Source of the DNA: a virus
Length of the DNA stretch: 64,000 bases
Virus record (IMG/VR): IMGVR_UViG_3300022871_000011
Coordinates: 13,274 to 77,273 of that record
Strand: one strand, 5' to 3'
Below are positions 7,499 to 54,266 of this stretch, one piece after another; the first letter of the stretch is position 1, and every line of letters begins with the position of its first letter. A program made the position numbers and the translations under genes. A model generated the notes under the pieces. It was not told the DNA's origin. It did not search any database and saw only the letters and a list, made by a program, of their open reading frames with translations.

Positions 7499-8258
7499 TT
7501 ACTACGATGGTTTGATGCGAAGCGATGAAGACGATAAAATAGTTTTCATGCGAAACACCAGTGAGGTTCCCTTTGCGGAACTGGATATAGATACGAAGAG
7601 AACGCAGCATTATAAGCACTGGCATGGAAGCGCGGCTCGTTTTGACTACTTCCTTACAGCCAATGATGATGAAGTCCGTAGATGGGATGGTAAGGTACAC
7701 TCCTCTGAGAGCTTCGTAGTGGGCTTTTGCGGTAAGATCTATACCGGACTACGCGTTAAGAGGACTAATGGTCTCTGCGTTACCGCACAAGGCTATAAGA
7801 AAACAAATGAGATCCTGTACGGAGACGATATGATTGAGTACCTGGAACATATCAGTGCTGATGACTGTGAGAACCATAGTAAATCGCACTGGCCCTGGCA
7901 GTTCACGCATTACGCAGGAACTGCGGCTAAGATACGAGACGCAATGACGCTTATGGAGAATGGACCACTTAAGGAGCTATTTATCAGATACCGGGTGCCT
8001 TACTTTGTGATGGAGGATTATGTGAAGTGTACTCTATTGCCGGTATTGAAGGACTACCAGTTCTACAGGGTATTTGACGCTTATCAGACTTATCAGGAGG
8101 TCCGGATGTTTGTAGAGGGCAACCTTGCACAGGATACTCAAGTCGTAGTACCTGTAGGCGGAGATTTAATAGTCCGCGATAGTAAGGGCTTCGACAAACA
8201 CAGCTTCCGTAAGGACAAGCAGGATAAGAAACAAAAAAGGAGAAAACATAGAACATGA
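7473..8258 (+). CDS. conserved phage hypothetical protein (HDYYD N-terminus, GFDxxSFRK C-terminus)
   Basis: Motifs recalled from a widespread phage family of unknown function. Confidence 0.7.
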   Translation: MRTITKIHDYYDGLMRSDEDDKIVFMRNTSEVPFAELDIDTKRTQHYKHWHGSAARFDYFLTANDDEVRRWDGKVHSSESFVVGFCGKIYTGLRVKRTNGLCVTAQGYKKTNEILYGDDMIEYLEHISADDCENHSKSHWPWQFTHYAGTAAKIRDAMTLMENGPLKELFIRYRVPYFVMEDYVKCTLLPVLKDYQFYRVFDAYQTYQEVRMFVEGNLAQDTQVVVPVGGDLIVRDSKGFDKHSFRKDKQDKKQKRRKHRT

Positions 8259-8560
8259 GTAATATGCAGAAAGACTGGGAAGCTGACCTTATGACTGAGT
8301 CCAAAGAGGATCTCATAGAAATGGTCAAGCATTTCCAGGAAATAGCGCTGGGTACATATGACCCAGACAAAGAGGAAGAGAACTATATGCTGGGGGTGGC
8401 TGTTAACATGTTCACCACACTAGCAAGTTGTATTCACAGGGGCGGTACCATTGAGTACCACGACGAGACAGCTAAATGGAACTGTGTCGAACTTGCCGAT
8501 GTTATAACTAACTGGGAAGTTAAGTACACCCGTGATAACATAAGGATGAAAGAGAAGTAA
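8255..8560 (+). CDS. hypothetical protein
   Basis: ATGA coupling; RBS. Confidence 0.65.
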   Translation: MSNMQKDWEADLMTESKEDLIEMVKHFQEIALGTYDPDKEEENYMLGVAVNMFTTLASCIHRGGTIEYHDETAKWNCVELADVITNWEVKYTRDNIRMKEK

Positions 8561-8566
8561 TATCAT

Positions 8567-8715
8567 ACGTTGGTAGCTAATAGGGTTAAGCGCTCGCATT
8601 TCAAGCGAGGTCAGAATAGACCGTACACCTGGTTAGGTTTATTCCCAAAATTAGGAACGGTATGCGCATACCGGTTCTATGGGTGATGGTAGTTCGAATC
8701 TATCCCAACGTGCCA
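8567..8715 (+). tRNA. tRNA-Glu(TTC)-like gene with a 78-nt structured variable region
   Basis: Acceptor ACGTTGG/CCAACGT, G discriminator, CCA; D arm GCT..AGC; anticodon arm CTCGC-ATTTCAA-GCGAG; T arm GGTAG-TTCGAAT-CTATC. Confidence 0.75.
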
Positions 8716-8725
8716 TTTTATTTAA

Positions 8726-8921
8726 GGTCCTGTAGCTGATATTGGGTTAGCGGCTGGGTGTTGCCTTTGTCATAAGGCACCAGTGTCAGATCGGCAAGAA
8801 ACATAGCCAACCGGTTGGTTATACGAAAAGCCTATCGGCCAAAATTTATGCAGGAAGCGCAGGAACAGTGCGGAATGTGTAATGGGCGTATAAGGAGGTT
8901 CGATTCCTTCTGGGATCACCA
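8726..8921 (+). tRNA. atypical 196-nt tRNA-like gene (possibly Asp-derived, GTC in loop) with an extended anticodon arm and ~105-nt variable region
   Basis: GGTCCTG/TGGGATC-A-CCA; D arm GCT..AGC; GCTGG..TGCCTT-TGTCAT-AAGGCA-CCAGT; T arm GGAGG-TTCGATT-CCTTC. Confidence 0.6.
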
Positions 8922-8926
8922 GTTTT

Positions 8927-9183
8927 TGAGTAGAGCGGGTGACATCCGCGAGTCGTGGTTACTACAGCCCCCTACATCCCGATTGAGCGGCCCAAAAAAA
9001 TATCGGAAGACGGCCGAGGCGCTCAGGGGTGATAAATAAAGGAAGAAGGTGGAGGGATCTATGGCCTATGTAACGGGTTTAATAGCGTTTGCATAGATCG
9101 TCATGAAGCCAAGGCCTATGGAGGGGTTACAAACCTCCGGCCGCTGCCGTAGTTCGAGAAGCCACTTTAACCCGCTCTGCTCA
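8927..9183 (+). ncRNA. unknown ~257-nt structured RNA
   Basis: 14-bp closing stem TGAGTAGAGCGGGT/ACCCGCTCTGCTCA plus several internal hairpins; follows the two tRNA-like genes. Confidence 0.6.
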
Positions 9184-9202
9184 TTTTTAACAAAGGAGAT
9201 AC

Positions 9203-9562
9203 ATGTACAAAGTAATGCATTATAAACACCCAGACGAAGCCAAACTCATACAGCGTATGTTTGTTTGGAAGGGGTATGGGTGCCCTATGAACGAAGACGG
9301 GGTAATGGTCCGCCGCGATACAAACGGCAAGGATGCAGCACTCCTCTACAAGCACAGAACAGTTGTGGCTGTAGGCTTCTTCGAGTCAGTTGAATATTTA
9401 AAGAAGATCGAAGGACTGAGTGATGAGGTACAAAGTATACCGGTGAGACCTGCAAGGGTACCACCTAAACCTCGGCCAAAGCCAGAGGTCAGTCCCATTA
9501 CAAAGGTCGACAAGCCCGCCGATCCTTTTGATGTTAACAAACTAAACGGGCCAGGATTTTAA
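9203..9562 (+). CDS. hypothetical protein with Pro-rich tail
   Basis: AGGAG RBS. Confidence 0.65.
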   Translation: MYKVMHYKHPDEAKLIQRMFVWKGYGCPMNEDGVMVRRDTNGKDAALLYKHRTVVAVGFFESVEYLKKIEGLSDEVQSIPVRPARVPPKPRPKPEVSPITKVDKPADPFDVNKLNGPGF

Positions 9563-9571
9563 GGAGGATGT

Positions 9572-9826
9572 ATACCAGAATCAAAATCAACGGACAAATT
9601 AAGAATACTCACAGGTTATACAGAAGAATTAACCGACGCCATAATAGCGACAGGTCTTGAGAGCATTAACAGGGTGATTGAATCAATTGAAATCACCTGG
9701 GAGTCTGTCACTATCTGTGGTGCTGACAGTATGCCCTGCCCGGGTCTTAAGATTGTATTTAGAGACGGCAATGTAACAGAGAAAACCGTAAGAGACGAAA
9801 AGGAGAACTTTGCAGAAATAACATGA
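9572..9826 (+). CDS. hypothetical protein with a probable ATA start (not in the ORF track)
   Basis: AAGGAGG followed by an 84-codon open frame ending in an ATGA overlap with sbcD. Confidence 0.45.
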   Translation: MPESKSTDKLRILTGYTEELTDAIIATGLESINRVIESIEITWESVTICGADSMPCPGLKIVFRDGNVTEKTVRDEKENFAEIT

Positions 9827-10875
9827 TAATATTTGCAGCAGACATACACCTGACACCTAGAGCCTGGACTAACCGCTGGTCTATAGAGGGCGATGCCTTC
9901 TATGCACTCCAGCAGATCCAGGACTATGTGAAAGGTAAGAAATGCTCAGGCATAGTACTGGGCGGAGACACAACAGACAGCAACACACCGGATGCAGCAA
10001 CACTGTACCACCTGTCTGAGTTTATGCACAAGATGACGGTCATGGGTATACCTGTGTACTTCATCAACGGGCAGCATGACAGAGGCGCTTATGGTCACTC
10101 CATTCTGGAAACCTATGGCGCCAAACATATTGACCAGGAGATTATTCAACTGGAAGGTAAAACATATTATGGCCTGTCATACAGGTCTCGTTCAGATCTA
10201 CTTACTGCACTTGCTGATGTCCCGGAATGTGATTTCCTGGTAATGCACTGTGCGTTTAAACACCTGTTAAGCTTCGAAGGAGCATGGCAGCTGGAGCCTT
10301 CAGACATCCCTGAATACGTATCAAATGTATTGGTTGGAGACATCCATGTACAGGACGTATCAGCGTTTGATAAGCTCAAGATATACAGCCCTGGTTCTAC
10401 TTATGCCTGCAACTCGGCAGAGATAAAACAGAAGCATGGGTTTTACACTATCGATAAGACAGATATTAAACATCATCTATTAAAGACTCGGACGTTTACT
10501 ACACTCTCTGTGGAGGACACATCTCGAGACGAAGTCATGAAAGAACTGGAAGCTATTAATAAGAAAGCTGTTAAGGCAGCATTGCCTCCTGTAGTCTTTG
10601 TGAAAATGACGAAAGATGACACTTTAGCGTTTGACAAATTCGATAAGATCGTTATTGTAAGAATAGACGCAGCATTGGAACTTGTTGATGTGTCAGATCT
10701 ACAGATAGACGCTGTCAAAAGCCTCAATCTGAAAGCTTCCTTACCTGCTGCAGTGGACCGCAAGAAAGATCCAGAACTTTATGATTTCTTAGAAGGGCTA
10801 CTCGACTCTGCTTCGGCGGGGGAGTATATCTCTGACTGGGTTACTAAAGAGGGTGTTAAGCTTGTGGAGAAATAG
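9823..10875 (+). CDS. sbcD: SbcD/Mre11-like nuclease
   Basis: DIH, GGD, GQHD, GDIH and YSPGS metallophosphoesterase motifs; SbcC nearby. Confidence 0.88.
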   Translation: MIIFAADIHLTPRAWTNRWSIEGDAFYALQQIQDYVKGKKCSGIVLGGDTTDSNTPDAATLYHLSEFMHKMTVMGIPVYFINGQHDRGAYGHSILETYGAKHIDQEIIQLEGKTYYGLSYRSRSDLLTALADVPECDFLVMHCAFKHLLSFEGAWQLEPSDIPEYVSNVLVGDIHVQDVSAFDKLKIYSPGSTYACNSAEIKQKHGFYTIDKTDIKHHLLKTRTFTTLSVEDTSRDEVMKELEAINKKAVKAALPPVVFVKMTKDDTLAFDKFDKIVIVRIDAALELVDVSDLQIDAVKSLNLKASLPAAVDRKKDPELYDFLEGLLDSASAGEYISDWVTKEGVKLVEK

Positions 10876-10890
10876 TCTAACGCGTTAGAC
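10875..10890. repeat. 16-bp palindrome GTCTAACGCGTTAGAC, copy 1
   Basis: Perfect palindrome; recurs at 41928 and 60557. Confidence 0.8.
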
Positions 10891-10914
10891 AAAATAAATA
10901 AAAGGAGATATAAG

Positions 10915-11505
10915 ATGATAAACACACCCATACCGATGGTCGTAGAGAACTCAGAACAGGGTCCTAGAGGGTGGGATATCTTTTCCCGTCTGATGAAAGA
11001 CAGAGTTATAATGCTTTCAACACCCATCGACGATATGGTATCGAATGTCATAGTAGCACAATTACTGTACTTGCAATCTGAGGACCCTTCTGCGGATATC
11101 GATATGTATATCAATAGTCCGGGCGGAACAGTCTCAGCAGGTATGGCCATTTATGATACTATGCAGATCCTTGGTTGTGATATTAAGACATACGGTATAG
11201 GCCAGGCCGCGAGCATGGGAGCACTGCTCCTAGCAGCTGGTGCACCCGGTAAACGTTTTGTCATGCCTAATGCACGTGTTATGATTCATCAGCCCCTCGG
11301 CGGAGCTGCAGGACAAGCCACTGATATTGAAATCCATACGAAGGAAATTCTTAGAATTAAGGATGACCTGAATAAGATTATGGTGAAGCATACCGGCCAG
11401 ACTATGAAGAAGGTAAAGCATGATTCGGATCGTGACTTCTTTATGTCCGCGGAGGAAGCCAAGAAGTATGGCATTGTGGATGAGGTCCTAACTAATCTAA
11501 AATAG
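10915..11505 (+). CDS. clpP: ATP-dependent Clp protease proteolytic subunit
   Basis: DIFSRL, YINSPGG, GQAASMG, MIHQP and DRD motifs; catalytic triad intact. Confidence 0.97.
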
Positions 11506-14694: not shown

Positions 14695-17198
14695 GTCACT
14701 ACACATTAAAACGTAACGGAGCACTTTACTCAATATCACCATGGGATCCTTTGCTGGGTCCATTGATGACCTATACGCTCCGTGAATTTGAATTCGCTGC
14801 ACACAAGGCGAAACCAACATTCACTGAAGAAGAATTATATAGCGTACAACCAGATGGACAGACAGCAGTCTTCCCCTCAGGCCTCTATCAGCGGGTAGTT
14901 AAAAACCTAAAGAAGAGAGGACATACGTATGAAGTAGAAGATTACAGGGACTTGGCAGCTCTTATGCCGGCTCCTGATTTCACAAAAGTAGACGAACTAC
15001 GCAGAGGGCAGGATAAGATCCTCCTTGCAGTGGCCGGACAAGATGGTGGTCTTTTGGTAGGCGGTACAGGACTTGGTAAATCATTTTTGATAGTCCAGAT
15101 CTGTAAAATGTATCCCGATCTGAAGATCGTTGTAGTGTCCCCACGTAAACCTGTCGTAGAAACGCTTTACGAGGGCCTTACAGAAGCTTTAGGCTTCGTA
15201 GCGGTCGGACAGGTAGGTGGAGGCAAGGTGCAGACAGACAGGCGCGTAACGGTCTCTACGGTGAAATCTATATTAAAGGCCCCTATACAGGATTGTGACC
15301 TACTCTTATTTGATGAGGTACATGCTGTAGGGCGAAACCAAATAGGCGACAAACTGGCCTATGTAGCGAAGGGTAGAAAGTTTGGATTTACTGCAACCCC
15401 GGAAGGACGTGGTGACAACGCAGAGCTGGTCATTGAAGCTTTATTCGGACCAATACTCGTTGACATACCGTATGAGGATGCTATAAAGGATGGACTGGTA
15501 ACACCTATTGAGGTGCATAAGTATCCAGTAAGGTCCTCGGCTGCCTTTAATACCGACGGTGCAATTGTAACTAAAAAACGTCATGGATATTGGCGCAATA
15601 CATCTAGAAATGAGACGATGGCTGCTGTAGCTCGCATGTACCCTGAAGATGAACAGGTACTTATTATGGTCGAGACACTAGAGCATGCTATCTATTTACA
15701 TAAGTTATTACCCGAGTTCTCAGTTGTACACTGTGGCGGGGCTAATAAAAAGACAACTATAGGAGGAGTATCCACTGGTAAATATCGTATGGACGATAAA
15801 CGCCTTGGGTACTTACGACGACAGTTCTCTAAAGGAGAGCTAAAAAAGGTGATTTCGACAACCACCTGGCGGGAAGGGGTAATTTTGAATTTGCTCCGTA
15901 TATTGGAAACAATATATGATAATGCTTTTAATTGCTGGAAACTCTTGCTCAGCACAGGGTGCACCAAGACAATCAGCAGCGAAGTTTTAGTTTGATAGAT
16001 TGACAAGAACCACAACATGGAGTATGTTATTAATAACGACAAGAAATAACAACCATGGAGATAGTATGAAATTTACACATGAGATCGGAGATATTATAAG
16101 AGACCACGAGATACTCGCAGTAGTGCCTAATAAGCGTTATGCTTATTCAAAACAAAAAGGCAAAACGGTAGGTATAAATGACCCGAGAGTCTCTCTAAGG
16201 TGCAGCTGCTGCGGATATGAAAAAACCGTACACGGCACAAGACTTAAATATATCAGCTGTGATCATGGGCCCTGCCACCCACGTTTTGTGGACATAGCAG
16301 GCCACCGCTTTGGTAAGTTAGTTGCCCTCGAGTATGTAAATACAGAGGAGGACAAGAACCGGCAGTGGAAGTGGCTTTGTAAGTGTGACTGCGGTGCTAC
16401 TGAGATAATCTCCAGAGGATCCCTTATGGCAACTAAGAAGAGTTGCAGGAACTGTATGTATGGCAGAGTAGGGGACCATAATAGATTACCAAAGGAGCAG
16501 GCAGCATGGAATAGATTAGAAAGAGAGTATATAAGAAATGCAGGCAATAGAGGATATGCTTGGGAATTAACGACAACTCACTTTCGTATTTTATGCGAAG
16601 CGTCATGCTATTACTGTGGAACCCCTCCTCTTCTGAGAGAGCATAGAAATATGATTTGTAACGGAATAGATCGATTGGATAATACCAAAGGGTATACCAT
16701 TGATAATTCTGTGCCTTGTTGTAAGATATGTAACCTGATGAAGAGGGACTATACTAAGGATGGTTTTATTAGCCACCTCTTTAAAATAGTGCAATATCAA
16801 ACTAAAGAACGTTCATCGACTATCCCGGAAGGGAGTACACCTAAGCAGGTGGAAATGGAGCAAACCCTAGCAGGTAATGCTGAGGGTTAAGATATAGTCA
16901 GATCTCATGGGTGACCATGAGCAGCACCTAGAGGTGCGGATTAAGCCTAGCGAGCTTGGTTGAACATAAATGAGATTTCCCGAATTTAGCCGTTTTAATA
17001 AGGGCCGACGGTATGACCAGCCCAATCGCCAGCAATCAGATCCCGGGTAGACTGTCGCGTTTAGCAGATGGTAAAACCTGTGGGATACTAGTTGACATGG
17101 GAGATGAGTTCTCTACGTGGTCCGAACGAAGGGCTAAGGAGAGACACGCCATCTATCGTAAGACAGGCTGGAGAGTTGTTAACAAGGAGCTAACTTGA
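14691..17198 (+). CDS. superfamily 2 (UvsW-like) DNA helicase; exons 14691-15880 and 16973-17198
   Basis: GTGLGKS, DEVH, TAT; splicing restores EGV-DFPNL and motif VI QIPGRLSR. Confidence 0.88.
15881..16972 (+). mobile_element. group I intron in the helicase gene
   Basis: Exon ends in U with P1 GGGGU/GCUCC; AATTGCTGGAAAC, AATCAGCAG, CGACTA and AAGATATAGTC core elements; terminal G; in-frame exon join. Confidence 0.9.
16066..16890 (+). CDS. intron-encoded HNH-type homing endonuclease
   Basis: CYYCG...GIDRLDNTKGY...NSVPCCKICN; GHRFGKL...WLCKCDCG domain; internal promoter TTGACA-N17-TATGTT at 16000-16028. Confidence 0.85.
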   Translation: MKFTHEIGDIIRDHEILAVVPNKRYAYSKQKGKTVGINDPRVSLRCSCCGYEKTVHGTRLKYISCDHGPCHPRFVDIAGHRFGKLVALEYVNTEEDKNRQWKWLCKCDCGATEIISRGSLMATKKSCRNCMYGRVGDHNRLPKEQAAWNRLEREYIRNAGNRGYAWELTTTHFRILCEASCYYCGTPPLLREHRNMICNGIDRLDNTKGYTIDNSVPCCKICNLMKRDYTKDGFISHLFKIVQYQTKERSSTIPEGSTPKQVEMEQTLAGNAEG

Positions 17199-20248: not shown

Positions 20249-23200
20249 ATACCCCGCTTGATGGAACTGAATTTGGAGTTGACACGGAGACGCTCTTAAT
20301 TGAGGGTCCTGTCAAGCTACCGGATATGGTAATCATGCAGGTGTTTAATGGTATATCGGTTGACATTGTAACGTGGGATAAGGTTGATCTTTATCTCAGG
20401 CTACTGGAGAAGCACAACAAGGAGAAGATCCTATTGTACTTCCTTAATGCACCATTTGATATACGTGTGATCAATAGCACGACTCTACACAGAATGTTGG
20501 CTAACGATCAAGTAATAGATGTAGGCTCACGCCATCGTCTTTATAAGTTAGCAACGCAGGGGTACTTCGAAGAACCTGTATCACTGGCTAACCTGTGTCG
20601 TCTGTACTTGCACCAGGAGCTAGATAAGCCTGAGGATATCAGGATGGGCTTCACACGTGATATGGTACTAACAGCAGCGGATGTAAGATATGCAGCATTG
20701 GATGCTGTAGTGACACTGCTGATAGCGAGAGAGATGCCCGAGCAACCAACTGAAGCCTTACAGGCTAAAGCCGACCTTGTACTGGACCTAATAAAAGCAG
20801 CCGGTATTAAGGTAGACAAACCAGCTTGGGATGCTCATAAGCAGAGTATGCAGGACCGTTATGTAGTAGCAGCAGATGTCTTGAGAACCCACGGGTTCGA
20901 ACCAGACTCCAATGCTAATAAGCCTGGTACATTACTAGGTAAGTTCTGTAGTGCCATGGGTATCGATGCCCCACCCAAGGTATGGTCAGTGACTAAGCTC
21001 AAAGGTATACTATATGTAATGTATGCAGAGAGCGGAGGCACATTAGAGCATGCCTGTAGTGAACTGAAGATAGCAATGCCAGCCATTGTGGATAAGAAGT
21101 TCAAGATGACTAAGAAGAACACCCAGGACTTGACTGCTTGTTTAGCCAAGCATGACATGGTGGATCTTATAAGCACACGCAAGAGTAGGCCCTTTACTAA
21201 GGTGCTCCTACTCATGGCGGAGCTCATGAAAGAAGGCAATACCTATAAGGCTGTAATGGCTGAGACAAGTAAGCAGTACAATGCTGCAGGTGGGTGGGAG
21301 GATGACTCCGCTTTTAAAGGCCCCACTGCATTTGTACAAGACCATCTTAAGAAGCTGCAAGCTGTGCATGGTATAACATTCGCAGAGACACCCGGCGGTA
21401 AGATCAAGATGAGCAAGGATGAAGCCTGGCGTCTTGAGTCAAAGGGTATCAAGGACGAGTTCCTAGAAGCCTACATAGACTATAAGCATATCGAGAAGAT
21501 CCTCGGTACATATCTTAATGATGAGTTTATTTATACGGACGGCCGAGTTCATGCCAGATTTAATATCATGGTAAAAACGGGCCGCACGAGTTGTTCAAAA
21601 CCCAATCTTCAAAACCTGCCTAAGGCAGACGGCATCCGGGAACTGTTTACAGTTGAGGATGGTAAAGTCATGGTTAGTATTGATTATAATCAGCTGGAAC
21701 TATGTTCTCTAGCACAACACTGCCATAAGGAGTATGGTGTAAGTCGTATGAGAGAACTAATAAATGCTGAGATTGATTTACATAGTTGGTTCGCGGGGAG
21801 GAAGCTTAGGCATATCACCCCAGAGAATGACTATGATGGAACCGAGGTGTCCAGAGTAGGCCTCCTACCTATCCTTAAGAATATAAAGGATACAGAGGAT
21901 GGAGAACGAAGTAAGGCAAAAGCAGCGAACTTCGGTCAAAACTGCTTGCTTTTGCCTAAGGAACGTAGTATAGTAGCATAAACTATAGGAGTTATGCTAT
22001 GAAGAAATGTTTATTTTGTGGGAAAGGGCCGGTAGCAATAAAATACTGTTCTACGTTATGTAAGAGCAGATACCGGTCGAAACATGTGAGGTATGATAAA
22101 GTGTGTGAGTTTTGTGAAAAAGAGTTTGACACAACAACTAAAGCAACTAGATTCTGTTCCACGAGTTGTGCAGGGAAAGGAACCCCTGTGCCTCTTAAGA
22201 CATTAATCTGTGTTGATTGTGGTGAAGAGTTCGAATTCAAAGGCCGCACTAAAAAGCTACGCTGTGGCACTTGCTGGTCCGCCAAGAGATCAGAGCAATC
22301 CATGACATATAGATGCCAGAAGGACGCCTCCATTAAAAGGGGCGCAGGCAGTGGAGGGGCTCAGTTTGCTGAGGCCAATCACATGTGGAACTCCACAGCT
22401 AAGTATCATAGGCATGATGGCTATCACTACGACTACAGAGCCCGGTGCTTTAAACACTGGATCAAAGCGTGTGTTGTATGTGATAAAGAGGAAGGGCTCA
22501 TAGATGTTCACCATGTAAACGGTGATAGGGAGGATGTCTCTTTTGGGAATCTTGTCCCACTATGCCGCAAGTGCCACTCACAGGTACACAAGATAAATAA
22601 AGAGCTGGGCTACGATAAGTATGAAGAAGCCCTATTTGACCACCTATGGAAGGAAGGCCGAAGTAAAATCGCGGAATTAAGCGGGAACCCTACGTCCGAT
22701 GATAAGGGAATCCGAACCGAAGGCTAAACTAAGTTTAGTCAGGGGCAGAGCATAGAAGATGAAATAATTCTTCCACGAGGCCGCGACACAGTAATGTGAA
22801 AAGATATGCCGAGCTGCGGTGAAAGCCGTAGAAGTAGAGGATAAAAAGCCTTTACGATAACAATTGTTTCCAGGTGGTATGGGCGTAAATAGATTCTTAA
22901 ATGAATCATGGAAGAACGGGATGTATGATATGACATACGAGGAAGCACAGGAGCTACGCTCTGCGTGGTTTGATGCCTTCCCCGAAATGGAATTTCATAT
23001 GAATCCATCGACGTGCTCGGCACCTAATGGAGGGGCTGACACAAACATTTATGTGGGACATTCCTTAGCAGGAACATCACGTAAGTATTGCTCGTATAAT
23101 AGTGCGTGCAATTATCCGTTAAATTGTAGCGGATAAAAAATGAGGTGAATTCATGGGAAGCCAACTTGACAAATTAGCTTGTAACACGTATTGTAGTTAC

Positions 23201-24352
23201 AAGCTGAAGGTGATCATGAGCCAAGCTGCACAGGGATGTGTGGAAGGTGCAACGACTAGTCTGTACAATCTAGACCAGATGATGGGAGACCACGAGCGCC
23301 TCACCCGGGTAAAGTATACCCGGTGATGATATAGTCTGAACTATTACAAATGTCAAGGAGTTAATTAGCATGAAATGTCAGAAAAGGAACGAGAAGTAAG
23401 TCGCGAACGAGGTAGAAAGTATAGAGAAAACATGTCTGAAGAGCAGAGGACACGTAAAAGCGATCGCGACAAACAAAACCGAAGAGCTGCTAAGAAGGAA
23501 AGACTTACACTGAACAAGACTTTGTTTAAGAAGGGTAAGAGAATCTGTAGCAGATGTTATGACAAGAAAGTACTCTCGGCATACTCGACCAAAGGGAACA
23601 GCCCCTCCAATTATAATAAGATATGTGATAGTTGTTTAATAAAGCTCTATCAAACTATCTCTTATTCTCCGGAGGTCTTGACCCCTAAATTCTGGCGTAA
23701 AAAAGCATATAGCTGTAATGGAGGGTTTATATCCCGTCAAAAGCGACGGGGAATCGACACAGCTATACAGACATTAGGCACCCAAAAGATAACAGGAGAA
23801 GAACTCCTAAAATTATTTGAGTGCCAGAATAGGCTTTGCTTATACTGCCATACAGATTTATCTGACGGGCAGTTTCAACTAGACCATAGAACTCCGATTA
23901 ACGGAGGAGGAAAACATGGTATAGAAAATATAGACATAGTTTGTGCTGACTGTAATATGCTTAAATTTGATAAAGACCCTGAGTATTTCAAGGGCTTCAT
24001 CGGATCATATGCTAAACGTATACTCCAAGTAATAGAATTACAGGATAAAGAGCCTGTAAGATAACACAATGTTCAATCACTCGCCGCCACAGGAGCAAAG
24101 GTTGCACTTTGGGATCTGATGCGGAACGGGTACAAAATCGTTAACTTTATTCATGATGAAGTATTGCTTGAAGTAGATCGGGAGGGTCTGCACGAGAATG
24201 TTCTACGTGCACAGCAAATCATGGTAGACGCGATGAAGTTCATACTACCGGACGTCCGTATTGGAACGGAAGCGGCAGCTATGACACACTGGTATAAGGG
24301 CGCTAAACCCTTATTCGATGAACACGGCAAACTCACTTTGTGGGTGCCATAA
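20164..24352 (+). CDS. polA: family A DNA polymerase; exons 20164-21936, 22867-23119 and 24072-24352
   Basis: Exonuclease DTET and YAALDA; TGRTS..PNLQN; DYNQLE; motif B KAANFG/FPGG; NYP/FQS; motif C IHDE. Confidence 0.92.
21937..22866 (+). mobile_element. group I intron 1 of polA, with HNH ORF in the P1 loop
   Basis: Exon ACUUCGGU pairs with guide GCCGAAGU at 22657-22664; core downstream with variant P7 (GAGCAUA/UAUGCC); terminal G; in-frame join. Confidence 0.87.
21999..22727 (+). CDS. intron-encoded HNH endonuclease with N-terminal Cys-rich repeats
   Basis: DVHHVNGD...NLVPLCRKCHSQVH; promoter TTGCTT-N17-TATAGT at 21946-21974. Confidence 0.87.
   Translation: MKKCLFCGKGPVAIKYCSTLCKSRYRSKHVRYDKVCEFCEKEFDTTTKATRFCSTSCAGKGTPVPLKTLICVDCGEEFEFKGRTKKLRCGTCWSAKRSEQSMTYRCQKDASIKRGAGSGGAQFAEANHMWNSTAKYHRHDGYHYDYRARCFKHWIKACVVCDKEEGLIDVHHVNGDREDVSFGNLVPLCRKCHSQVHKINKELGYDKYEEALFDHLWKEGRSKIAELSGNPTSDDKGIRTEG
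23120..24071 (+). mobile_element. group I intron 2 of polA
   Basis: P1 UUAUCCGU/GCGGAUAA; CGACTA and GATATAGTC; terminal G; join gives NYPFQSLAA. Confidence 0.88.
23375..24064 (+). CDS. intron-encoded HNH endonuclease
   Basis: CLYC...LDHRTP..GGKH..ENI..VCADCN; promoter TTGACA-N17-TATTGT at 23166-23194. Confidence 0.87.
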   Translation: MSEKEREVSRERGRKYRENMSEEQRTRKSDRDKQNRRAAKKERLTLNKTLFKKGKRICSRCYDKKVLSAYSTKGNSPSNYNKICDSCLIKLYQTISYSPEVLTPKFWRKKAYSCNGGFISRQKRRGIDTAIQTLGTQKITGEELLKLFECQNRLCLYCHTDLSDGQFQLDHRTPINGGGKHGIENIDIVCADCNMLKFDKDPEYFKGFIGSYAKRILQVIELQDKEPVR

Positions 24353-34765: not shown

Positions 34766-36139
34766 ATGACAATGGCTAGTAGTAAAATGCAAAGTAGTTT
34801 CGACGTACTTGAAGTAAACCATGAACGCTTAACTGAAGAACTGATTGATTCCATGGACAGCCGTGTGCCTCTGTATATTTGGGGACCTCCAGGAATTGGT
34901 AAATCAGTTGTATGTAATGAGGTTGCTAAAAATGCAGCCAAGAAGAAGGGTAAATTCTATATTGACTGGAACCGTGCTCCTCGCGCCATTAAACACGCTT
35001 TGCGTGACGGTGAATTGGGTTCGGAACTTCTCCAGCTGATGATTAAACCCGAGCCTCCGAAGACTAAAACCACCAAACCCGGTGAAAAACCTGCGAAGGT
35101 TGAACATAGTCACAACCCTGCGGATGATATCCCGTCTGCTCTCGTAAGCGGCCTTATGGTTGCTAGCAACGAAAGAATGGCCAAAGATTTCATTGCAAAG
35201 AAGAAGTCCGCTACTGTAGCAGACTGTTTCATCTTTGCTGATTACAGGCTCTCACAGAGAGATCCTTCTGATATCAATGGTCTTCCCTCCATCAACAGCC
35301 GCGACTACGTCGAATGGCGTCCGACCCTGTTGTTCTCTGTGCTCTCTATGCCAGAGGCTGATGGTATGTTATTCTTTGATGAAATTCCTCAGGCCATGCC
35401 GGTTGTACAGAATGCAGCGTATCAGCTCATTCAGGACCGTTGCTGTGGTGAGATTTCCTTCTCAGATAAGATCGTTGTAATCGCGGCCGGTAACCGTCTC
35501 ACTGACGGTGGTAACCAGTTCCAGATCCCTCCAGCACTTGCTAACAGGTTCACACATGTGGAACTGATGGCTCCGACCATTGAGAAATGGGCTGACTGGG
35601 GTATTGATCACAATGTTGACTCCCGTATTATTGCGTTCTTGCGCTTCAAGCCCTCTTACCTGATGGACTCTATGGATGACGTCCGGAAGAAAAGAGCTAT
35701 GGCTTGGTGTTCACCTCGCTCTTGGGAGAAAGCATCTGATAAGATCAAAGGGTTCTCTGGTGCCGGTGAGAAGTCATTCGACCGTATCTATGGTAAGGTT
35801 GCAATGGCTTGTGGTAAAGCTAGAGCTACGGAATTTCGTGGCTTTATCAAAACCACTGTGTCTTTGAATATCAAAGATATCCTCGCGCACCCGGAAAAAG
35901 CAAAGAGCTTCGAGATCGGTATCAAATGGGCCCTTATCTCTGCGGTTAGTGAATACTACCGTGAAGACAAGAAGTTCCTGGATGATATCCTCGGGCTCTG
36001 TCGCCACCTCTCTGCCGACTTCAGTGTGTCTATGCTGCGTATGATGCGTCGCTATGACCGTACTCAGTTCGCTACCCGTCTTGCTAAATGTAAGAACAAG
36101 GAAGTTGTACTGGACTACATGAAGTACTTCGAGGATTAA
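34766..36139 (+). CDS. MoxR-like AAA+ ATPase
   Basis: WGPPGIGKS, FFDEI, AAGNR, ALANRF, SPRSWE. Confidence 0.9.
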   Translation: MTMASSKMQSSFDVLEVNHERLTEELIDSMDSRVPLYIWGPPGIGKSVVCNEVAKNAAKKKGKFYIDWNRAPRAIKHALRDGELGSELLQLMIKPEPPKTKTTKPGEKPAKVEHSHNPADDIPSALVSGLMVASNERMAKDFIAKKKSATVADCFIFADYRLSQRDPSDINGLPSINSRDYVEWRPTLLFSVLSMPEADGMLFFDEIPQAMPVVQNAAYQLIQDRCCGEISFSDKIVVIAAGNRLTDGGNQFQIPPALANRFTHVELMAPTIEKWADWGIDHNVDSRIIAFLRFKPSYLMDSMDDVRKKRAMAWCSPRSWEKASDKIKGFSGAGEKSFDRIYGKVAMACGKARATEFRGFIKTTVSLNIKDILAHPEKAKSFEIGIKWALISAVSEYYREDKKFLDDILGLCRHLSADFSVSMLRMMRRYDRTQFATRLAKCKNKEVVLDYMKYFED

Positions 36140-36140
36140 G

Positions 36141-36410
36141 TTGAGTTTTCAAGGAATAATTGAGTGCGAACATTGCCGCGTCCACGACATAGCTCTGGAC
36201 CGCGGTGATGGCGTGCCCTTCCCTTGGTATACCCTTGGGTATCCTGATGGCCCCTTATTAAGGGGTCCTCTACATTTTTGTAGTGCGGAGTGTCTTATGC
36301 TATTTCTTTATAGAAAGGAAAAGAATGCAAACACCGCAAATACTGCGATGCGAGATGCTTTAATAAAACTCAGTGCCGAAATAATAACAGAAGGAGGCAA
36401 TAATGCCTAG
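36141..36410 (+). CDS. small Cys-rich protein
   Basis: CEHC...HFCSAEC. Confidence 0.55.
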   Translation: MSFQGIIECEHCRVHDIALDRGDGVPFPWYTLGYPDGPLLRGPLHFCSAECLMLFLYRKEKNANTANTAMRDALIKLSAEIITEGGNNA

Positions 36411-37788
36411 AACAGTAATGACAGCTGAAGAGAAGCTGCACAAAGCTAAGATTAAGCTGCAGGAACTACATCCATTCTTTGCATATTTAATTATGCATAT
36501 GGGTGCTACCGTTGATGAAGACTGCCCAACGATGGGTGTCGACAAAAAGGGTAACCTGTGGTACAATCCGGCGTATGTAGAATCTTTATCAGATTCCCTA
36601 TTAAGAAGTTGTTTAGCACATGAGATCTCTCATGTTATCCTTGCTCATCTGGCTCGCTATCATAAAGATTGGCAGCCTGACATTGGTAACATTGCAGCAG
36701 ATATCGTAGCTAATGACTTGCTTGATACAGAGGGCTTTGAATTGGATTCCAATTGGATTGTCCCGCGTAACCATGAATATGCCTTCCAGGGTAAGAAAGG
36801 TGCCGTCGTAATTGATGACATCGATAACAAGTCCATGGAAGAGATCTATGGTATCCTGGAAGCTAACGTCGATATGAAACCTCAGCCTAAATGTGGTACA
36901 TGCAACGGAACAGGTCAGGTATCTCAGGATCCCGGAGACTCCGATGGCGAGGGTGATGGAGACGGAGACGGACAGGGTCAAGGTAACAAGCCTTGCCCAC
37001 AATGTAATGGCTCAGGTAACAGTGCCCAAGGTCAAGTACCTGGTATGAAAGGTAAATCCCAGGACCAGCATAGGTTCGGAGAAGATAAGGATGAACAGTC
37101 AGACTCATTGGATAAAGATAGTGAACTACCTGATGAGTGGAAGTTCAAAATTGCTGAAGCTGCTGCGTTCGCGAAGCAACGTGGTCGCCTATCTGGTAAT
37201 CTGAGTGGCATGGTCGGTGAAATGATCGAATCAAAGGTTGATTGGCGCTCACAGCTACTGAAGTACATAAGTGCTATGCTGCCATATGATTTTACCTGGT
37301 CCAGGCCTTCTCGTAAGTCGGCTTCACTTGGTATATATCTGCCTGCGGTTCTGAAGGAGTACCTGGAAGTCGTTGTACATATCGACACATCCGGATCTAT
37401 CTGTGGTGAGACTCTTAAGGAGTTCCTAGGAGAGGTCAAGGGTATTCTGACACAGTTCGAAGCAGTTAGGATGACATTGATCATCTGTGACTGTGAGATC
37501 CACCAGGTCTATGACCTGACACCGGACAATGTACCTGAACTCGAAGAGATGCCTATAGGAGGCCGTGGCGGTACAGCTCACAGGCCTGTCGTAGATTGGA
37601 TTAATGAAAACAAACAAACAGCACGTATCTTTATATCCCTTACGGATGGTTACAGTGACATCGAAAGTTGTTACGATGACCTCCCATTTGGCTGCGACCG
37701 TCTTATCTTATTAGATAGAGACAGCGGTGACATGGAAGCACGTATGGAGCCTTATGGAGAGGTGATCTGTTTAGGAGATCAGAGCTAA
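36403..37788 (+). CDS. DUF2201-like metallopeptidase / VWA-domain protein
   Basis: HEISH; NIAAD; MIDAS DTSGS; GRGGT; LTDGY; partner of the upstream AAA ATPase. Confidence 0.88.
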   Translation: MPRTVMTAEEKLHKAKIKLQELHPFFAYLIMHMGATVDEDCPTMGVDKKGNLWYNPAYVESLSDSLLRSCLAHEISHVILAHLARYHKDWQPDIGNIAADIVANDLLDTEGFELDSNWIVPRNHEYAFQGKKGAVVIDDIDNKSMEEIYGILEANVDMKPQPKCGTCNGTGQVSQDPGDSDGEGDGDGDGQGQGNKPCPQCNGSGNSAQGQVPGMKGKSQDQHRFGEDKDEQSDSLDKDSELPDEWKFKIAEAAAFAKQRGRLSGNLSGMVGEMIESKVDWRSQLLKYISAMLPYDFTWSRPSRKSASLGIYLPAVLKEYLEVVVHIDTSGSICGETLKEFLGEVKGILTQFEAVRMTLIICDCEIHQVYDLTPDNVPELEEMPIGGRGGTAHRPVVDWINENKQTARIFISLTDGYSDIESCYDDLPFGCDRLILLDRDSGDMEARMEPYGEVICLGDQS

Positions 37789-43885: not shown

Positions 43886-43919
43886 ACACCTCCAACCACT
43901 AACTATGAAAGGATATATT

Positions 43920-45284
43920 ATGAACGATCTAGTATTAAAGCTCGTCGAACAAGCCGAGCTCAAACATTGGCAAGTCCTACTCGTAGGAGGCGCCGTAAGG
44001 GATCAGTTCTTTGAAAAAGCTGAAGAAGTAAAGGACTATGATCTAGAATTCTACGGCCCAACAGCTGAAGAGCTAGAAGAGTTCCTAAGTAAAATAGGAA
44101 ACGTCAAAGCAGTTGGCAAAAGCTTTGGTGTTTATAAGTTAACAGTAGATGATATTGATCTTGATGTGTCCTTACCTAGAAGGGAGAACAAAGTAGGTGT
44201 AGGGCACAAGGGTTTTGTAATTGAAGCGGACGGGAGCATGACTCCTGAGGAAGCCGCTACTCGAAGAGACTTCACTATGAATGCCATCGCAATGAACGTG
44301 CGAAGTGGTGAGGTCCTGGATTACTTTAAAGGCTTGAATGACATCAAGGACAGGATACTTAAGCACACATCGGATCGGTTCATTGAGGACCCACTGAGAG
44401 TGCTACGTGGTTTCCAGTTCTGTGGTCGTTTTGGTCTGTCCGCGGATAAGTCAACGTTAGAGCTGTGCGAACAGCTACTCCCACAATACACCGAGCTACC
44501 AAAGGAACGTGTATGGATGGAGTGGGAGAAATGGGCCGATAGATCTACCAAGCCCTCTTTTGGGTTAAAGTTCCTTAAGAAGACAGGTTGGCTAGAGCTC
44601 TACCCTGAGCTATATGACCTGGTAGGACTGGAACAAGACGCGTTGTGGCATCCTGAAGGGGATGTATTTACACATTCGTGTCAATCCTGCGATGCTATGG
44701 TTAAGCTATGTGATGAGGGTGGTAAGAAGGGTAGGGACCGTCAGGTTCTTATGTTTGCCATACTCTGTCATGACTTAGGCAAGGTTGTAACGTCAGAGAT
44801 CAATGATCAAGGCCGTATAATTTCCAGAGGCCACCCTGAAGCGGGTGAGGAGTACACCAGGCTATTTCTTAATAGTATAGGTGCACCCCAGGAAGTTATC
44901 GAGAGGGTTATACCTCTGGTCGTTAATCATATGATGCACTTATCAGAACACTCGACCAAGTCGGTCAGGCGTTTGTCCATTAGATTAGGGAAAGCCAATA
45001 TCGATGAGCTTGCTTATGTGATAACGGCGGACTCACGTGGACGTGGAAGTTTATCAAAGAATGAAGTACCCGGATTAGCTGAACTGATTAGACTGGCCAA
45101 AGAGGTAAAGGTTCAGACCTTTGCCCCTAAGCCTATCTTAAAGGGTAGACACCTTATGGACCTCGGTCAAGCGGCCGGACCTGATATGGGTAAACACCTT
45201 GAGAGAGCCTACCAAGCACAGCTAGATGGATTCTTCTCCACAGAGACCACAGCAATACAGTGGTTTGTGGATCACACAAAATAA
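43920..45284 (+). CDS. cca: CCA-adding tRNA nucleotidyltransferase with HD domain
   Basis: VGGAVRD, DYD, RRDFTMNA, EDPLRVLR, HPEGDV, HDLGK. Confidence 0.93.
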   Translation: MNDLVLKLVEQAELKHWQVLLVGGAVRDQFFEKAEEVKDYDLEFYGPTAEELEEFLSKIGNVKAVGKSFGVYKLTVDDIDLDVSLPRRENKVGVGHKGFVIEADGSMTPEEAATRRDFTMNAIAMNVRSGEVLDYFKGLNDIKDRILKHTSDRFIEDPLRVLRGFQFCGRFGLSADKSTLELCEQLLPQYTELPKERVWMEWEKWADRSTKPSFGLKFLKKTGWLELYPELYDLVGLEQDALWHPEGDVFTHSCQSCDAMVKLCDEGGKKGRDRQVLMFAILCHDLGKVVTSEINDQGRIISRGHPEAGEEYTRLFLNSIGAPQEVIERVIPLVVNHMMHLSEHSTKSVRRLSIRLGKANIDELAYVITADSRGRGSLSKNEVPGLAELIRLAKEVKVQTFAPKPILKGRHLMDLGQAAGPDMGKHLERAYQAQLDGFFSTETTAIQWFVDHTK

Positions 45285-45930: not shown

Positions 45931-46893
45931 ATGAAATGTGCAGATGTAGGTTCGTTGCTAGAGGAAACACCTCAAGCATATTATTGGATGGGTTTTTTGA
46001 TGGCTGATGGTTATTTGTCCGCTAAGCGGGTTACGTTAACACTCGCTCTAGAGGATGAAGAGCATCTACGTAGGTTTGGTAATTTTATCAGGTACTCAGG
46101 CAGGCGTAAAGCGGAGGGTAATAGCCAGAGCATATCTGCTATGGATACGTGTCTAATTCCTAGATTAAAACGTAAGTTTGATCTAGATAAACAGAAAACG
46201 TATAAACCACCTGCTCAACTACCTGATGTGCCGGATGACCTGTTGTTATCCCTTATTATAGGGTTTATTGATGGGGACGGATGCATCAGAGCCCAGACAG
46301 GACGAATAGACCCCGCGTTGACAGTTAAAGTACACGACTCGTGGCTCGATATAATGGAGGATATGAGTTGTTTTTTACACGAGAGAGCCGGATGCTCTAC
46401 GGTACATGCCCGTATAAATAATGCTGGTTATGCGTTTTTTACTGTAACCAACTCTATCGTCTTAAAATATATTAAGAAGGGAGCACTAAGATTACAGCTA
46501 CCGGTTTTGGCCCGTAAATGGGACAAGGTAGACTTGGCTCATGTGAGCAGGGCAGAGTTGGGCCTTACACGAGTGGGGCAGGTAAAAGAGGCCTCTGCTA
46601 GGGGTTTAAGCCTTCAGGAGATGGCTGATACGTTGAATCTTAAGTATAACACAGTCTACATGATTTGTAGACGTAACGCTATCGCTATGAATAAAGATAA
46701 AGAAGTAAGGCAGGTGGAAACACTAGCCCACGAGGGTTTAACCATCAAACAAATCGCCGCGGAATTAAAACTAAACTACAAGGCTGTTTATCTGCGTTGT
46801 AAAAGACATTCAATCGCGGTTACAAGAGAGAGGAGAGATAAAAAAGCTAATGTCAAATCAGTACTGGAGCGCGGATCTTCACATCTCGCATAA
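45931..46893 (+). CDS. free-standing double-motif LAGLIDADG endonuclease with C-terminal HTH repeats
   Basis: YWMGFLMADG and IIGFIDGDG; promoter TTGATA-N17-TATCTT at 45878-45906. Confidence 0.88.
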   Translation: MKCADVGSLLEETPQAYYWMGFLMADGYLSAKRVTLTLALEDEEHLRRFGNFIRYSGRRKAEGNSQSISAMDTCLIPRLKRKFDLDKQKTYKPPAQLPDVPDDLLLSLIIGFIDGDGCIRAQTGRIDPALTVKVHDSWLDIMEDMSCFLHERAGCSTVHARINNAGYAFFTVTNSIVLKYIKKGALRLQLPVLARKWDKVDLAHVSRAELGLTRVGQVKEASARGLSLQEMADTLNLKYNTVYMICRRNAIAMNKDKEVRQVETLAHEGLTIKQIAAELKLNYKAVYLRCKRHSIAVTRERRDKKANVKSVLERGSSHLA

Positions 46894-52402: not shown

Positions 52403-52403
52403 T

Positions 52404-52491
52404 GCCTGGCCCTGGTGGGAATCTTTCTGCGAAGTTCTAGAACAGTACCAGGAGAGAAGGTTTGGAGGTTCAATCCCTCCCCTAGGCTTCA
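52404..52491 (+). ncRNA. degenerate tRNA-like element
   Basis: GCCTGG/CTAGGC acceptor; T arm GGAGG-TTCAATC-CCTCC; no D arm. Confidence 0.45.
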
Positions 52492-52499
52492 AGTCTTAC

Positions 52500-53530
52500 G
52501 TGCGGCGGCTTGAGTACAGGCCGGGAAAACTCTACGAACCCTCGGGCTATTAGGTCAGGCGAGGTATCCGGATTAGTACCCTGGATGAACGCCTTGGACA
52601 GTAGTATGGGCCCCTCCGGTCCGTGAAAAGCGGTCCTCGCGCACCAGTTTGTGCCAGAATGGGCCTTAACAGGTCTAGATACTCTGTGGAAGTCGATTGT
52701 AGTACCCTGGGCGAGATAACCGGAAGTAACCTGGGCAGGCAGTAGATTAGTAACAGTAGTCACTCGGAGGGTGAATTGACACCCTCGCTGGCTTTTGATT
52801 TTTAAGGATGTGCCACTATTAAGTTTGACTCGAAGGTCGTGGGTTCGAGTCCCACCTCCGCGAAACCGGCAGTGAACGGGCATCGTCGTTGGCGTGTGTC
52901 TACTAGTACCTGTCTTAATTTGGCGGAGTGGAGCAGTTGGAAAAGCTCGTCGGGTCTTTATTATAACGTCGGATGATCCTGGTGTGGTCTGCTAGCTCCT
53001 AAGCGAACACCATAGGGAAGAGTAGTCATACAAGTAAGCTATTATAAGGATAGCCCAACGTATACAATGCCCCTCTAGAATTACGCAGAGAAGACGTTTG
53101 TCGATCGAACTATGAGTACGATGATCTAATGTTTTGTGCCGCCCCGTATACAACTTAGGCGTGACAGGAGGGAAGCTTTGTGACTGTGGATTTTTAAGTG
53201 TTTACACTTAGTTCTCCCAGCGGGCCTCGAAAAACGCGGTGAATACTTATGAGTTCAAGATACTAGGAACTGGATAGTTTAGAGTTTAACGCCGGAGGGC
53301 ACAGATTTAGCCTGGGACTAGGGGGTAAGCCTCTGTTGTATAGACTTCAGTAGGGTCTCCCAAAAAATACGGTGAAGGCAACTAGTATAAGTAGTATCAG
53401 TGTTGGATGATCTAACGTTTTGTACCGTCTCACGGCCTAAAGGCCGGATTGTCCGAGAGGGGGAATAAGGCCCGACGAGATAACGCGGTCCCCTGGTCCT
53501 CGAAAAACGCGGCGAAGACACTGGTATTAA
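52500..53530 (+). ncRNA. candidate ~1-kb structured RNA (or RNA cluster) with an embedded permuted tRNA
   Basis: No credible ORF; many helices, AGUA/GAA motifs, repeated GAUGA..GAA modules. Confidence 0.6.
52827..52956 (+). tRNA. circularly permuted initiator-tRNA-like fold (3' half 52827-52863, 5' half 52922-52956), no anticodon loop
   Basis: Halves closely resemble tRNA-fMet and pair with each other in the acceptor and anticodon stems. Confidence 0.75.
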
Positions 53531-53534
53531 ACCT

Positions 53535-53569
53535 GGCCCCCTTCTTAACGGGAGGGGGCCTTAACTTTT
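53535..53569 (+). terminator. intrinsic terminator
   Basis: GGCCCCCTTC..GGAGGGGGCC then TTAACTTTT. Confidence 0.6.
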
Positions 53570-53580
53570 GGAGGAATGTG

Positions 53581-53955
53581 ATGGATAAAGAAAGACCAAT
53601 TGATAAAAAGTATATAAAGTATGACATATATAAGCTATGCTCAGCCAAGACTGCCTTGAAAGGTGCTAAGGAGGCAGTGGTGGGTGATGGTGGCGATAGA
53701 ATAAAACTTTTGGGGAGGGGGATGAAAGGCAATGCTGTGTACGCTCTTGCCTACGTAGCTGCGGCTATGTGTGAGCATTTTGATGTGATTAAGGAAACAG
53801 CTCAGGCTATGATCGAACATGATTTGAGAGCCGAGGCTTATACACTACACGGAGAAGCAGGCGAGGCCTTTACAGAGGCTAGCATGGTTGTATTCTCAGA
53901 GAAATTGGAGGATGGAGATGAAGACGACGATGAAGACGATTCCCATCCATTTTAA
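53581..53955 (+). CDS. hypothetical protein with acidic tail
   Basis: GGAGG RBS; the upstream extension in the ORF track overlaps the ncRNA. Confidence 0.65.
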   Translation: MDKERPIDKKYIKYDIYKLCSAKTALKGAKEAVVGDGGDRIKLLGRGMKGNAVYALAYVAAAMCEHFDVIKETAQAMIEHDLRAEAYTLHGEAGEAFTEASMVVFSEKLEDGDEDDDEDDSHPF

Positions 53956-54241
53956 AGTATGCTTCACAGGCAAGATGTATTGGCATCGTAATGTAATGCA
54001 TACACAAGCAAAGATGGACGGACAGATACCTGTTAATTCAGTTACCAAGAATACAGACATACTGGTATTGGCTGACTTTAAGTCAATGAGTATTAAAGCA
54101 TATAAAGCGCGCCGTAATGGCACACGTTTACTTAAAGAGACTGATTGGTATGGTGTACCCTGGCATAAGTCTGAGAAGGAGATTAATGATTATATAGATG
54201 TACATATGTTCGCCGAGGTTTTAAAAGACTATGATGATTAA
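53918..54241 (+). CDS. stand-alone BRCT-domain protein
   Basis: VCFTGKM..R...SVTKNTDILV...K..KA...G..LL.E..W. Confidence 0.75.
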   Translation: MKTTMKTIPIHFKVCFTGKMYWHRNVMHTQAKMDGQIPVNSVTKNTDILVLADFKSMSIKAYKARRNGTRLLKETDWYGVPWHKSEKEINDYIDVHMFAEVLKDYDD

Positions 54242-54266
54242 ACACTAACCAAAAAGGAGGTGCAAC

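Follow-up and report, generated by a model that had tools for sequence, protein, structure and literature searches.

A tRNA-Glu-shaped phage RNA gene with a 78-base two-hairpin domain at the variable position, and a paralogue of the same plan

Introduction

The variable region of a tRNA usually counts about 4 to 25 nt, and yet in a phage genome a gene with the shape of a tRNA-Glu was encountered in which 78 nt separate the anticodon stem, ending at 8609, from the T stem, starting at 8688. This raises the question whether the additional bases are retained in the RNA as a domain of their own, are cut out of a precursor, or mark a tRNA gene in decay. The first-pass annotation of the locus, made from the letters alone, had offered two answers, a tRNA scaffold carrying a cargo domain or an unknown type of mini-intron.

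The gene is located in a window of 64,000 bases, corresponding to bases 13274–77273 of a 77,273-base IMG/VR record with an estimated completeness of about 41%. The gene content is that of a tailed phage of bacteria and comprises an SbcCD-like nuclease, a ClpP-like head protease, a DnaB-like helicase, a family A DNA polymerase, RecA-like and RuvC-like proteins and a CCA-adding enzyme with an HD domain. No close relative was found among 50,697 GenBank phages. Its strong Shine-Dalgarno sites are taken by us to speak against a host from the Bacteroidota.

Results

A tRNA-Glu body with a single large insertion

Starting 6 nt past the stop codon of the ORF at 8255–8560, a tRNA-Glu(UUC)-shaped gene of 149 nt was identified on the plus strand at 8567–8715, based on an Rfam tRNA match with the helices checked pair by pair. 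The segment 8567–8712 scored 41 bits with the Rfam tRNA family RF00005 (gathering score 29, E 1.9e-6), with model positions 1–71 all aligned and one large insertion after model position 44; the match appears only under permissive filters. Default ARAGORN, Rfam in gathering mode and a whole-genome tRNA search all missed the gene at 8567–8715. The intron mode of ARAGORN returned a ‘tRNA-SeC (tca) i(39,57)’ and an overlapping ‘tRNA-Phe’, which were rejected as forced fits disagreeing with the Rfam alignment.

All arms of the cloverleaf could be paired. The acceptor stem (8567–8573/8705–8711) has seven standard pairs, the first being A1-U72, and the D stem has three pairs and an A-A, with GGG in the D loop. 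The anticodon arm (8593–8609, plus strand), delimited with the Rfam alignment and the pair table, consists of a stem of five standard pairs (8593–8597/8605–8609) and the 7-nt loop ATTTCAA, which contains A32 at 8598, T33, the anticodon TTC at 8600–8602, A37 and A38. The T arm GGTAG-TTCGAAT-CTATC (8688–8704, plus strand), detected by Rfam alignment, T-arm scan and pair table alike, again has five standard pairs (8688–8692/8700–8704) and the T loop TTCGAAT. It is followed, on the same strand and after the 3' half of the acceptor stem, by a discriminator G and an encoded CCA (8712–8715; G73 at 8712, CCA at 8713–8715), which were read directly from the sequence. Membership of RF00005 thus goes together with the general marks of a cloverleaf, namely a 7-bp acceptor stem, GG in the D arm, U33 and a TTCRA T loop.

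The complete cloverleaf with encoded CCA, the unusual A at position 32 and the 78 extra bases at 8610–8687, between anticodon stem and T stem, had all been described in the first-pass annotation and are real, since the Rfam alignment (41 bits) and the pair table show them. The E. coli-type identity set of tRNA-Glu includes G1-C72, U2-A71 and an augmented D helix. In the phage gene the anticodon UUC and G73 are present, and the acceptor pairs A1-U72 and C2-G71 deviate from the E. coli-type set. The locus is a real, unannotated gene, made up of a tRNA-Glu body and a 78-base two-hairpin domain.

Two tandem hairpins as the preferred fold of the inserted domain

The 78-nt domain (8610–8687, plus strand) was placed at the variable-region position by the RF00005 insertion and by constrained folding. 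Its order is a GUCA linker, helix A, helix B directly after it, and a GUGAU linker into the T stem. Helix A (8614–8644, plus strand) has 9 bp (8614–8622 with 8636–8644) and a 13-nt loop, and opens with the GA of the word GTCAGA, which is common to both domains of the locus (see below). In the constrained fold, helix B (8645–8682, plus strand) starts with the 3-bp helix CCA/UGG (8645–8647/8680–8682) and an AAAU bulge, and continues with 5 bp (8652–8656/8675–8679) and 6 bp (8658–8663/8668–8673), separated by a one-base bulge on each strand and closed by a GCGC loop.

With the cloverleaf fixed, the folding energy was −43.1 kcal/mol for the two tandem hairpins, −32.7 kcal/mol for a corrected four-way junction and −19.4 kcal/mol for the cloverleaf alone. 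The junction proposed earlier, with three hairpins under one closing stem, is therefore about 10 kcal/mol less stable than the tandem hairpins and had to be given up. As originally drawn, it used G8673 in both the closing helix and the CGGTATG/CATACCG hairpin, and the latter would leave a 2-base loop as a 7-bp stem; it must be 6 bp with the GCGC loop. Upon comparison with 500 dinucleotide shuffles, the insert alone reached a modest z of −2.3, with 1.4% of the shuffles folding as well, and the z for the whole gene was −2.6.

A neighbouring gene carries a domain of the same plan

Ten bases downstream of the tRNA-Glu gene a second, paralogous tRNA-like gene of 196 nt begins (8726–8921, plus strand), identified with pair tables and the T-arm scan. 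Its acceptor stem counts 7 bp, a D arm is present, the T arm reads GGAGG-UUCGAUU-CCUUC and the 3' end is A-CCA. In the anticodon arm, which is lengthened, 5 bp are followed by a GUGU bulge and another 6 bp, and GUC lies within the 6-nt loop UGUCAU; the variable position of the gene is occupied by a domain of 109 nt (8785–8893). The paralogue was recognised neither by Rfam nor by ARAGORN; the lengthened anticodon arm and the 109-base domain explain why Rfam missed it. Both RNA genes are located in a 640-base stretch (8561–9202) without convincing ORF, flanked by two same-strand ORFs in a gene array that is otherwise tightly packed. The flanking small ORFs had no match in a Pfam scan, and scans for promoters and terminators gave no signal above shuffles.

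The two domains are built on one plan: after GUCA comes a helix A that starts with G-C and A-U, and after this CCA/UGG, where the AAAU bulge is the same in both and is followed by a U-A pair. In the paralogue, helix A is formed by 8789–8795/8830–8836 and the CCA-AAAU-U...A-UGG core by 8839–8846/8882–8885; after the U-A pair a distal helix follows, and then a G and the linker. The words GTCAGA, CCAAAATT and ATGGG occur in this order in both domains. When the two inserts were compared outward from the junction, six pairs were found to be changed on both sides and still paired, and one was broken. The changed pairs are pairs 3, 5 and 7 of helix A (AU to UA, AU to GC and AU to CG) and pairs 2, 3 and 4 of helix B2 (AU to UA, GC to AU and GU to UG), the broken one is pair 4 of helix A, with C opposite U. 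The hairpin tips differ in length as well as in sequence.

The collinear chain of exact words of at least 5 bases shared by the inserts totals 35 bases; 5000 dinucleotide shuffles averaged 15.8 and never exceeded 32 (p < 2e-4). The chain GTCAGA...CCAAAA...ATGGG was present at only these two sites in the genome and at none in the fetched loci (about 0.78 Mb in all). A single-sequence covariance model of the first insert did not recover the second, and aligning the two genes with MAFFT gave no useful information. Conserved junction words, variable tips and six compensated pairs make up the pattern of a folded functional module. The comparison, a single one within one genome, provides good evidence for one homologous folded module, in which the junction is conserved and the tips are free.

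Both hairpin tips have some symmetry. Positions 8658–8673 are a perfect 16-nt palindrome with the GCGC loop, and the hairpin tip of the paralogue at 8803–8822 is a 20-nt near-palindrome with a CCGG loop. Palindromic tips of this kind could in principle pair between two molecules or be a protein site in DNA.

Relatives of the locus

Searching the locus and each gene with blastn against the 50,697 GenBank phages yielded no meaningful match. Pattern scans of IMG/VR, combining either the common words with the T loop or the T arm with the acceptor, gave chance matches or none, and the 31 matches of a motif scan in 185,579 prokaryote genomes (one per species) were all spurious on inspection. A sequence look-up gave look-alikes in this genome alone. 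The SbcD-like neighbour gene has metagenome relatives at 61–71% identity, and its identical protein is recorded on 14 contigs. In one metagenome scan its relatives reached at most 37% identity among the matches listed, and in IMG/VR only four were found, all distant. At the distant SbcD-like loci, ordinary tRNAs or none were located upstream of the gene, and no insert-bearing tRNA was seen.

A homologue with a conserved insert structure, on which the first-pass annotation had set weight, was therefore found once, as the paralogue in the same genome, and no orthologue was found elsewhere. For this reason support for the fold comes from one paralogue and from thermodynamics with the modest z of −2.3. 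A limited search of the literature found no matching description and, as far as could be told, an RNA gene with a tRNA-Glu body and such a domain is so far apparently new.

Comparison with known RNA classes and processing enzymes

Besides tRNA, no Rfam family was matched at E ≤ 10 in the 4-kb region, in a 485-base search or by the insert alone. In the region 7500–11500 no group I or group II intron was found at E ≤ 10, RF00028 included; as a control, the same library detects group I introns elsewhere in the window. Group I and II introns in tRNA genes are usually longer than 200 nt and located in the anticodon loop, in contrast to the 78 nt at the variable position observed here. The covariance models of known self-cleaving ribozyme families (hammerhead, twister, twister-sister, pistol, hatchet, HDV-like and hairpin) gave no match at E ≤ 10, either in 4 kb or with the insert by itself.

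Several candidate classes were set aside. A known ribozyme, riboswitch, intron, tmRNA or Y RNA was rejected on the lack of an Rfam match, and a dispersed repeat or MITE because the genome contains no other copy of the insert. By inspection, neither the tandem G-A of a k-turn nor the CUGANGA of a hammerhead core was present. For an archaeal-type bulge-helix-bulge, inspection of the boundaries showed no more than a 4-bp GUCA/UGAU helix and a 2×3 internal loop, and the paralogue is without it. A YrlA or other Y RNA was rejected on 0 hits for PF05731 in the 77-kb record, no match to RF02553 and RNA ends that form an acceptor stem. Nor is the gene a class II tRNA, since its anticodon is that of Glu and two hairpins take the place of the single arm of Leu, Ser, Tyr or Sec.

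Six-frame searches of the record revealed no TROVE/Ro60 (PF05731, 0 hits), RtcB, tRNA splicing endonuclease (PF01974, 0 hits) or RNA ligase, and Pfam scans of about 50 ORFs no RNA-processing enzyme besides the CCA-adding enzyme. These absences are weak evidence, because the record is incomplete and host enzymes could contribute. RtcB was present in 10 of 14 control bacterial genomes; with RtcB common in bacteria and the record about 41% complete, the missing enzymes could come from elsewhere.

Other RNA-related features of the record

No canonical tRNA was found in the 77-kb record. A strict T-arm scan resulted in five sites, of which two belong to the present genes, two are located at 52.4–54.3 kb and one is probably due to chance. 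The four T-arm-bearing tRNA-like 3' ends in the record are all non-canonical, and RNAs of this unorthodox tRNA-like shape seem to be a speciality of the phage. The CCA-adding enzyme (43905–45284, plus strand), recognised with Pfam by a PolyA_pol head domain and an HD domain, is 30–33% identical to annotated tRNA nucleotidyltransferases of large enterobacterial phages. Glu codons represent 7.3% of the 8,979 phage codons sampled, with GAA and GAG equal.

Several further features of the record were recorded. The region 52403–54260, about 1.8 kb without convincing ORF, contains two tRNA-type T arms (T loops at 52469 and 52844) with acceptor-like 3' strands and no encoded CCA; an apparent tRNA 5' half (52922–52956) is placed after the matching 3' half, and a weak Rfam tmRNA match is present at 52838–52855. 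Right after the two tRNA-like genes a third structured RNA was observed (8927–9187), with a 14-bp closing helix followed by a T run and a z of −3.0 versus shuffles. No Rfam family matches it, and a CCCAAAAAAAAUAU stretch within it resembles the CCAAAAUU core. Group I introns were detected at 15872–16067, 16647–16921 and 23086–23358, one of them clear (63.6 bits) and two sub-threshold (39 and 24 bits). ORFs at 21999–22727 and 23375–24064 encode HNH proteins, the ORF at 45931–46893 a LAGLIDADG-like protein, and the replication genes appear heavily interrupted. At 34766–37788 an AAA ATPase is located beside a DUF2201 metallopeptidase/VWA-like protein, which may be a MoxR-vWA-type pair.

Discussion

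The tRNA body, the insert, its preferred fold and a paralogue of the same plan are features observed in the genome of this phage. The question raised by the locus is what becomes of the domain in the RNA. The reading preferred here, to which we give about an even chance, is that the RNA, shaped like a tRNA-Glu, retains the domain as a handle or shield. Since all arms are intact and a CCA is encoded, the gene is probably under selection as a tRNA-shaped molecule. The anticodon arm of the paralogue, with 5 + 6 bp and a 6-nt loop, implies that loss of its domain would yield no decoding tRNA, and this suggests that the RNAs work as they are. The CCA-AAAU bulge is an internal element conserved along with the boundaries, and it too suggests retention. 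Against it, the boundary words resemble splice sites, and a perfect 7-nt anticodon loop would suit a spliced decoder.

The first-pass annotation had named the right alternatives, with a scaffold on one side and a mini-intron on the other. The evidence leans towards the scaffold, given the arm of the paralogue, from which no ordinary tRNA would result, a record in which no ordinary tRNA was found, and the lack of a splicing or ribozyme signature. If the 78 nt are an undescribed intervening sequence, they would be cut at GUCA|GA and AUGG|G by an endonuclease or by the RNA itself, and a host ligase such as RtcB would join the halves to a tRNA-Glu(UUC) of about 71–76 nt. A tRNA body and anticodon loop that are canonical apart from A32 would agree with this, as would the same boundary words in two different tRNA bodies, a pattern that splice signals or a mobile element would leave. 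Self-splicing and homing elements are moreover plentiful in the genome, with group I introns (23086–23358, 16647–16921) and HNH and LAGLIDADG ORFs, and a decoder would be useful to a phage in which Glu makes up 7.3% of 8,979 codons. On the other hand, neither an Rfam group I/II intron nor a self-cleaving ribozyme was detected at E ≤ 10, no bulge-helix-bulge common to both genes was seen by inspection, and the record is without splicing endonuclease, RtcB and RNA ligase. A small ribozyme cuts once, and 78 nt are too short for two. The paralogue is still non-canonical once its domain is removed, and the conserved CCAAAATT core is internal to the element instead of at its edge. Excision is considered unlikely. 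The bolder form of the idea, in which the GUCA / CCA-AAAU / AUGGG junction with its two hairpins would be a portable element removed from the variable region of phage pre-tRNAs, is regarded as distinctly unlikely.

Cleavage could also take place within the domain. A host endonuclease would then cut the AAAU bulge or a hairpin, resulting in a tRNA of two pieces that its stems hold together, or in a small RNA released from a tRNA-framed precursor. The A/U-rich bulge is identical in both genes, AAAUU fits the preference of RNase E, and precursors framed by a tRNA are known to give rise to further small RNAs in other viruses. Elsewhere in the genome, however, the hairpin sequences are not repeated and no target-like complement was found, and such a processing site is judged very unlikely. 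A functionless RNA, from a decaying tRNA gene hit by an insertion, would be in line with the failure of motif scans to find an orthologue in IMG/VR or in 185,579 prokaryote genomes and with the rejection of the gene by standard tRNA finders. It is difficult to reconcile with four intact tRNA arms and CCA, with a second gene that keeps the junction while its helices are changed by paired substitutions, with an insert that is no dispersed repeat in the genome and with an ORF-free block of 640 bp kept within an otherwise tightly packed same-strand gene array; decay is accordingly thought highly improbable. Finally, AUAGACC (8616–8622) can pair with GGUUUAU (8636–8642) or with GGUUCUAU (8673–8680), and a ligand or protein might toggle the tRNA shape between the two. 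Both pairings are present in the sequence, but the second is about 10 kcal/mol worse, no equivalent pairing was seen in the paralogue and no riboswitch family matches, which leaves a conformational switch as a highly improbable explanation.

If the domain is retained, as we prefer to read the locus, an RNA of about 149 nt with a complete tRNA-Glu body would be made from the gene. That this RNA is expressed and keeps its domain is inferred from the sequence, as is every functional step proposed here. The usual tRNA end-processing enzymes would free it from a read-through transcript and the 78-nt domain would be kept. In this domain, two variable hairpins would sit on a conserved three-way junction made up of the GUCA linker, the CCA/UGG helix and its AAAU bulge and a purine-rich 3' linker, at the position where class II tRNAs bear their extra arm. 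As a handle or shield it may be the binding site for a phage or host protein; alternatively, its bulk may alter recognition of the RNA by host enzymes that bind tRNA or by defence nucleases that cut tRNA. The RNA would either deliver glutamate on the ribosome or imitate tRNA-Glu, and we lean to imitation.

Additional structure between anticodon and T stems is also found in the class II tRNAs of bacteria (Leu, Ser, Tyr, Sec) and in the long-armed allo-tRNAs (Mukai et al. 2017, PMC5389517). There the arm is kept in the mature molecule and is a single hairpin of about 10–25 nt, whereas the phage gene, as read from its sequence, has 78 nt, two hairpins on a conserved junction and a Glu anticodon (UUC). 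The variable-arm position tolerates additions, since tRNAs engineered to carry aptamer hairpins on the end of a long variable arm stay translationally active in E. coli (PMC7590224). These aptamer-tagged allo-tRNAs (Mukai 2020, PMC7590224) function in translation and can be captured or recruited through the module; like the ‘tRNA scaffold’ chimeras, they have a tRNA body with a foreign folded module. The engineered versions are man-made and carry a small hairpin at the arm tip or a cargo on the anticodon arm, while the phage RNA is natural, larger and branched.

A similar combination of a tRNA-like module with a protein-binding part is known from the YrlA-type Y RNAs bound by Ro60/Rsr (RF02553), which are present in some phages. 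In YrlA, which lacks an anticodon arm, the Ro-binding stem is built from the two ends of the RNA, in contrast to the phage RNA, whose ends are an acceptor stem with CCA. Non-canonical archaeal tRNA introns (PMC4090602) are likewise inserted outside the anticodon loop, at any position, and rely on a bulge-helix-bulge. The phage gene is without bulge-helix-bulge, its record without splicing endonuclease, and its gene content looks bacterial, given the class II CCA enzyme and the RecA- and DnaB-type domains.

Cleavage of tRNA is a common anti-phage defence, against which phage tRNAs are known countermeasures (PMC10264068, PMC11464382, PMC11555353, PMC13056530). Bacterial defences cut anticodon loops, anticodon arms and 3' tails (PMC13056530, PMC12445682, PMC12851939), altered tRNAs are an answer of phages to them (PMC10264068, PMC11464382, PMC11555353), and phage CCA-adding enzymes have been read as tRNA repair functions (PMC7824862). 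The present gene is phage-borne like the tRNAs that counter such defences, and A32 and a CCA-adding enzyme are found here as well. The counter-defence tRNAs known so far (PMC10264068, PMC11464382, PMC11555353) differ from host tRNAs by few substitutions, and none is known to have been described with an added domain. A role of the RNA in tRNA conflict, as a shielded decoder or a decoy, is plausible.

Whichever way the domain is handled, standard annotation misses the gene, and counts of phage tRNAs would overlook genes of this kind. An excised domain would amount to an intron of a new kind for bacteria or phages. A portable element, if true, would represent a new tRNA intron class or a small ribozyme in the bacterial world, and the function of phage tRNAs would then hinge on a splicing step controlled by the phage or the host. 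If the domain is retained, it would be by far the largest natural elaboration of a variable arm known to us, branched and about three times as long as any class II arm. Along with its neighbour and the further unusual tRNA-like RNAs of the record, it would suggest that viruses remodel tRNAs into new RNA tools, perhaps as part of an arms race around tRNA-cutting defences.
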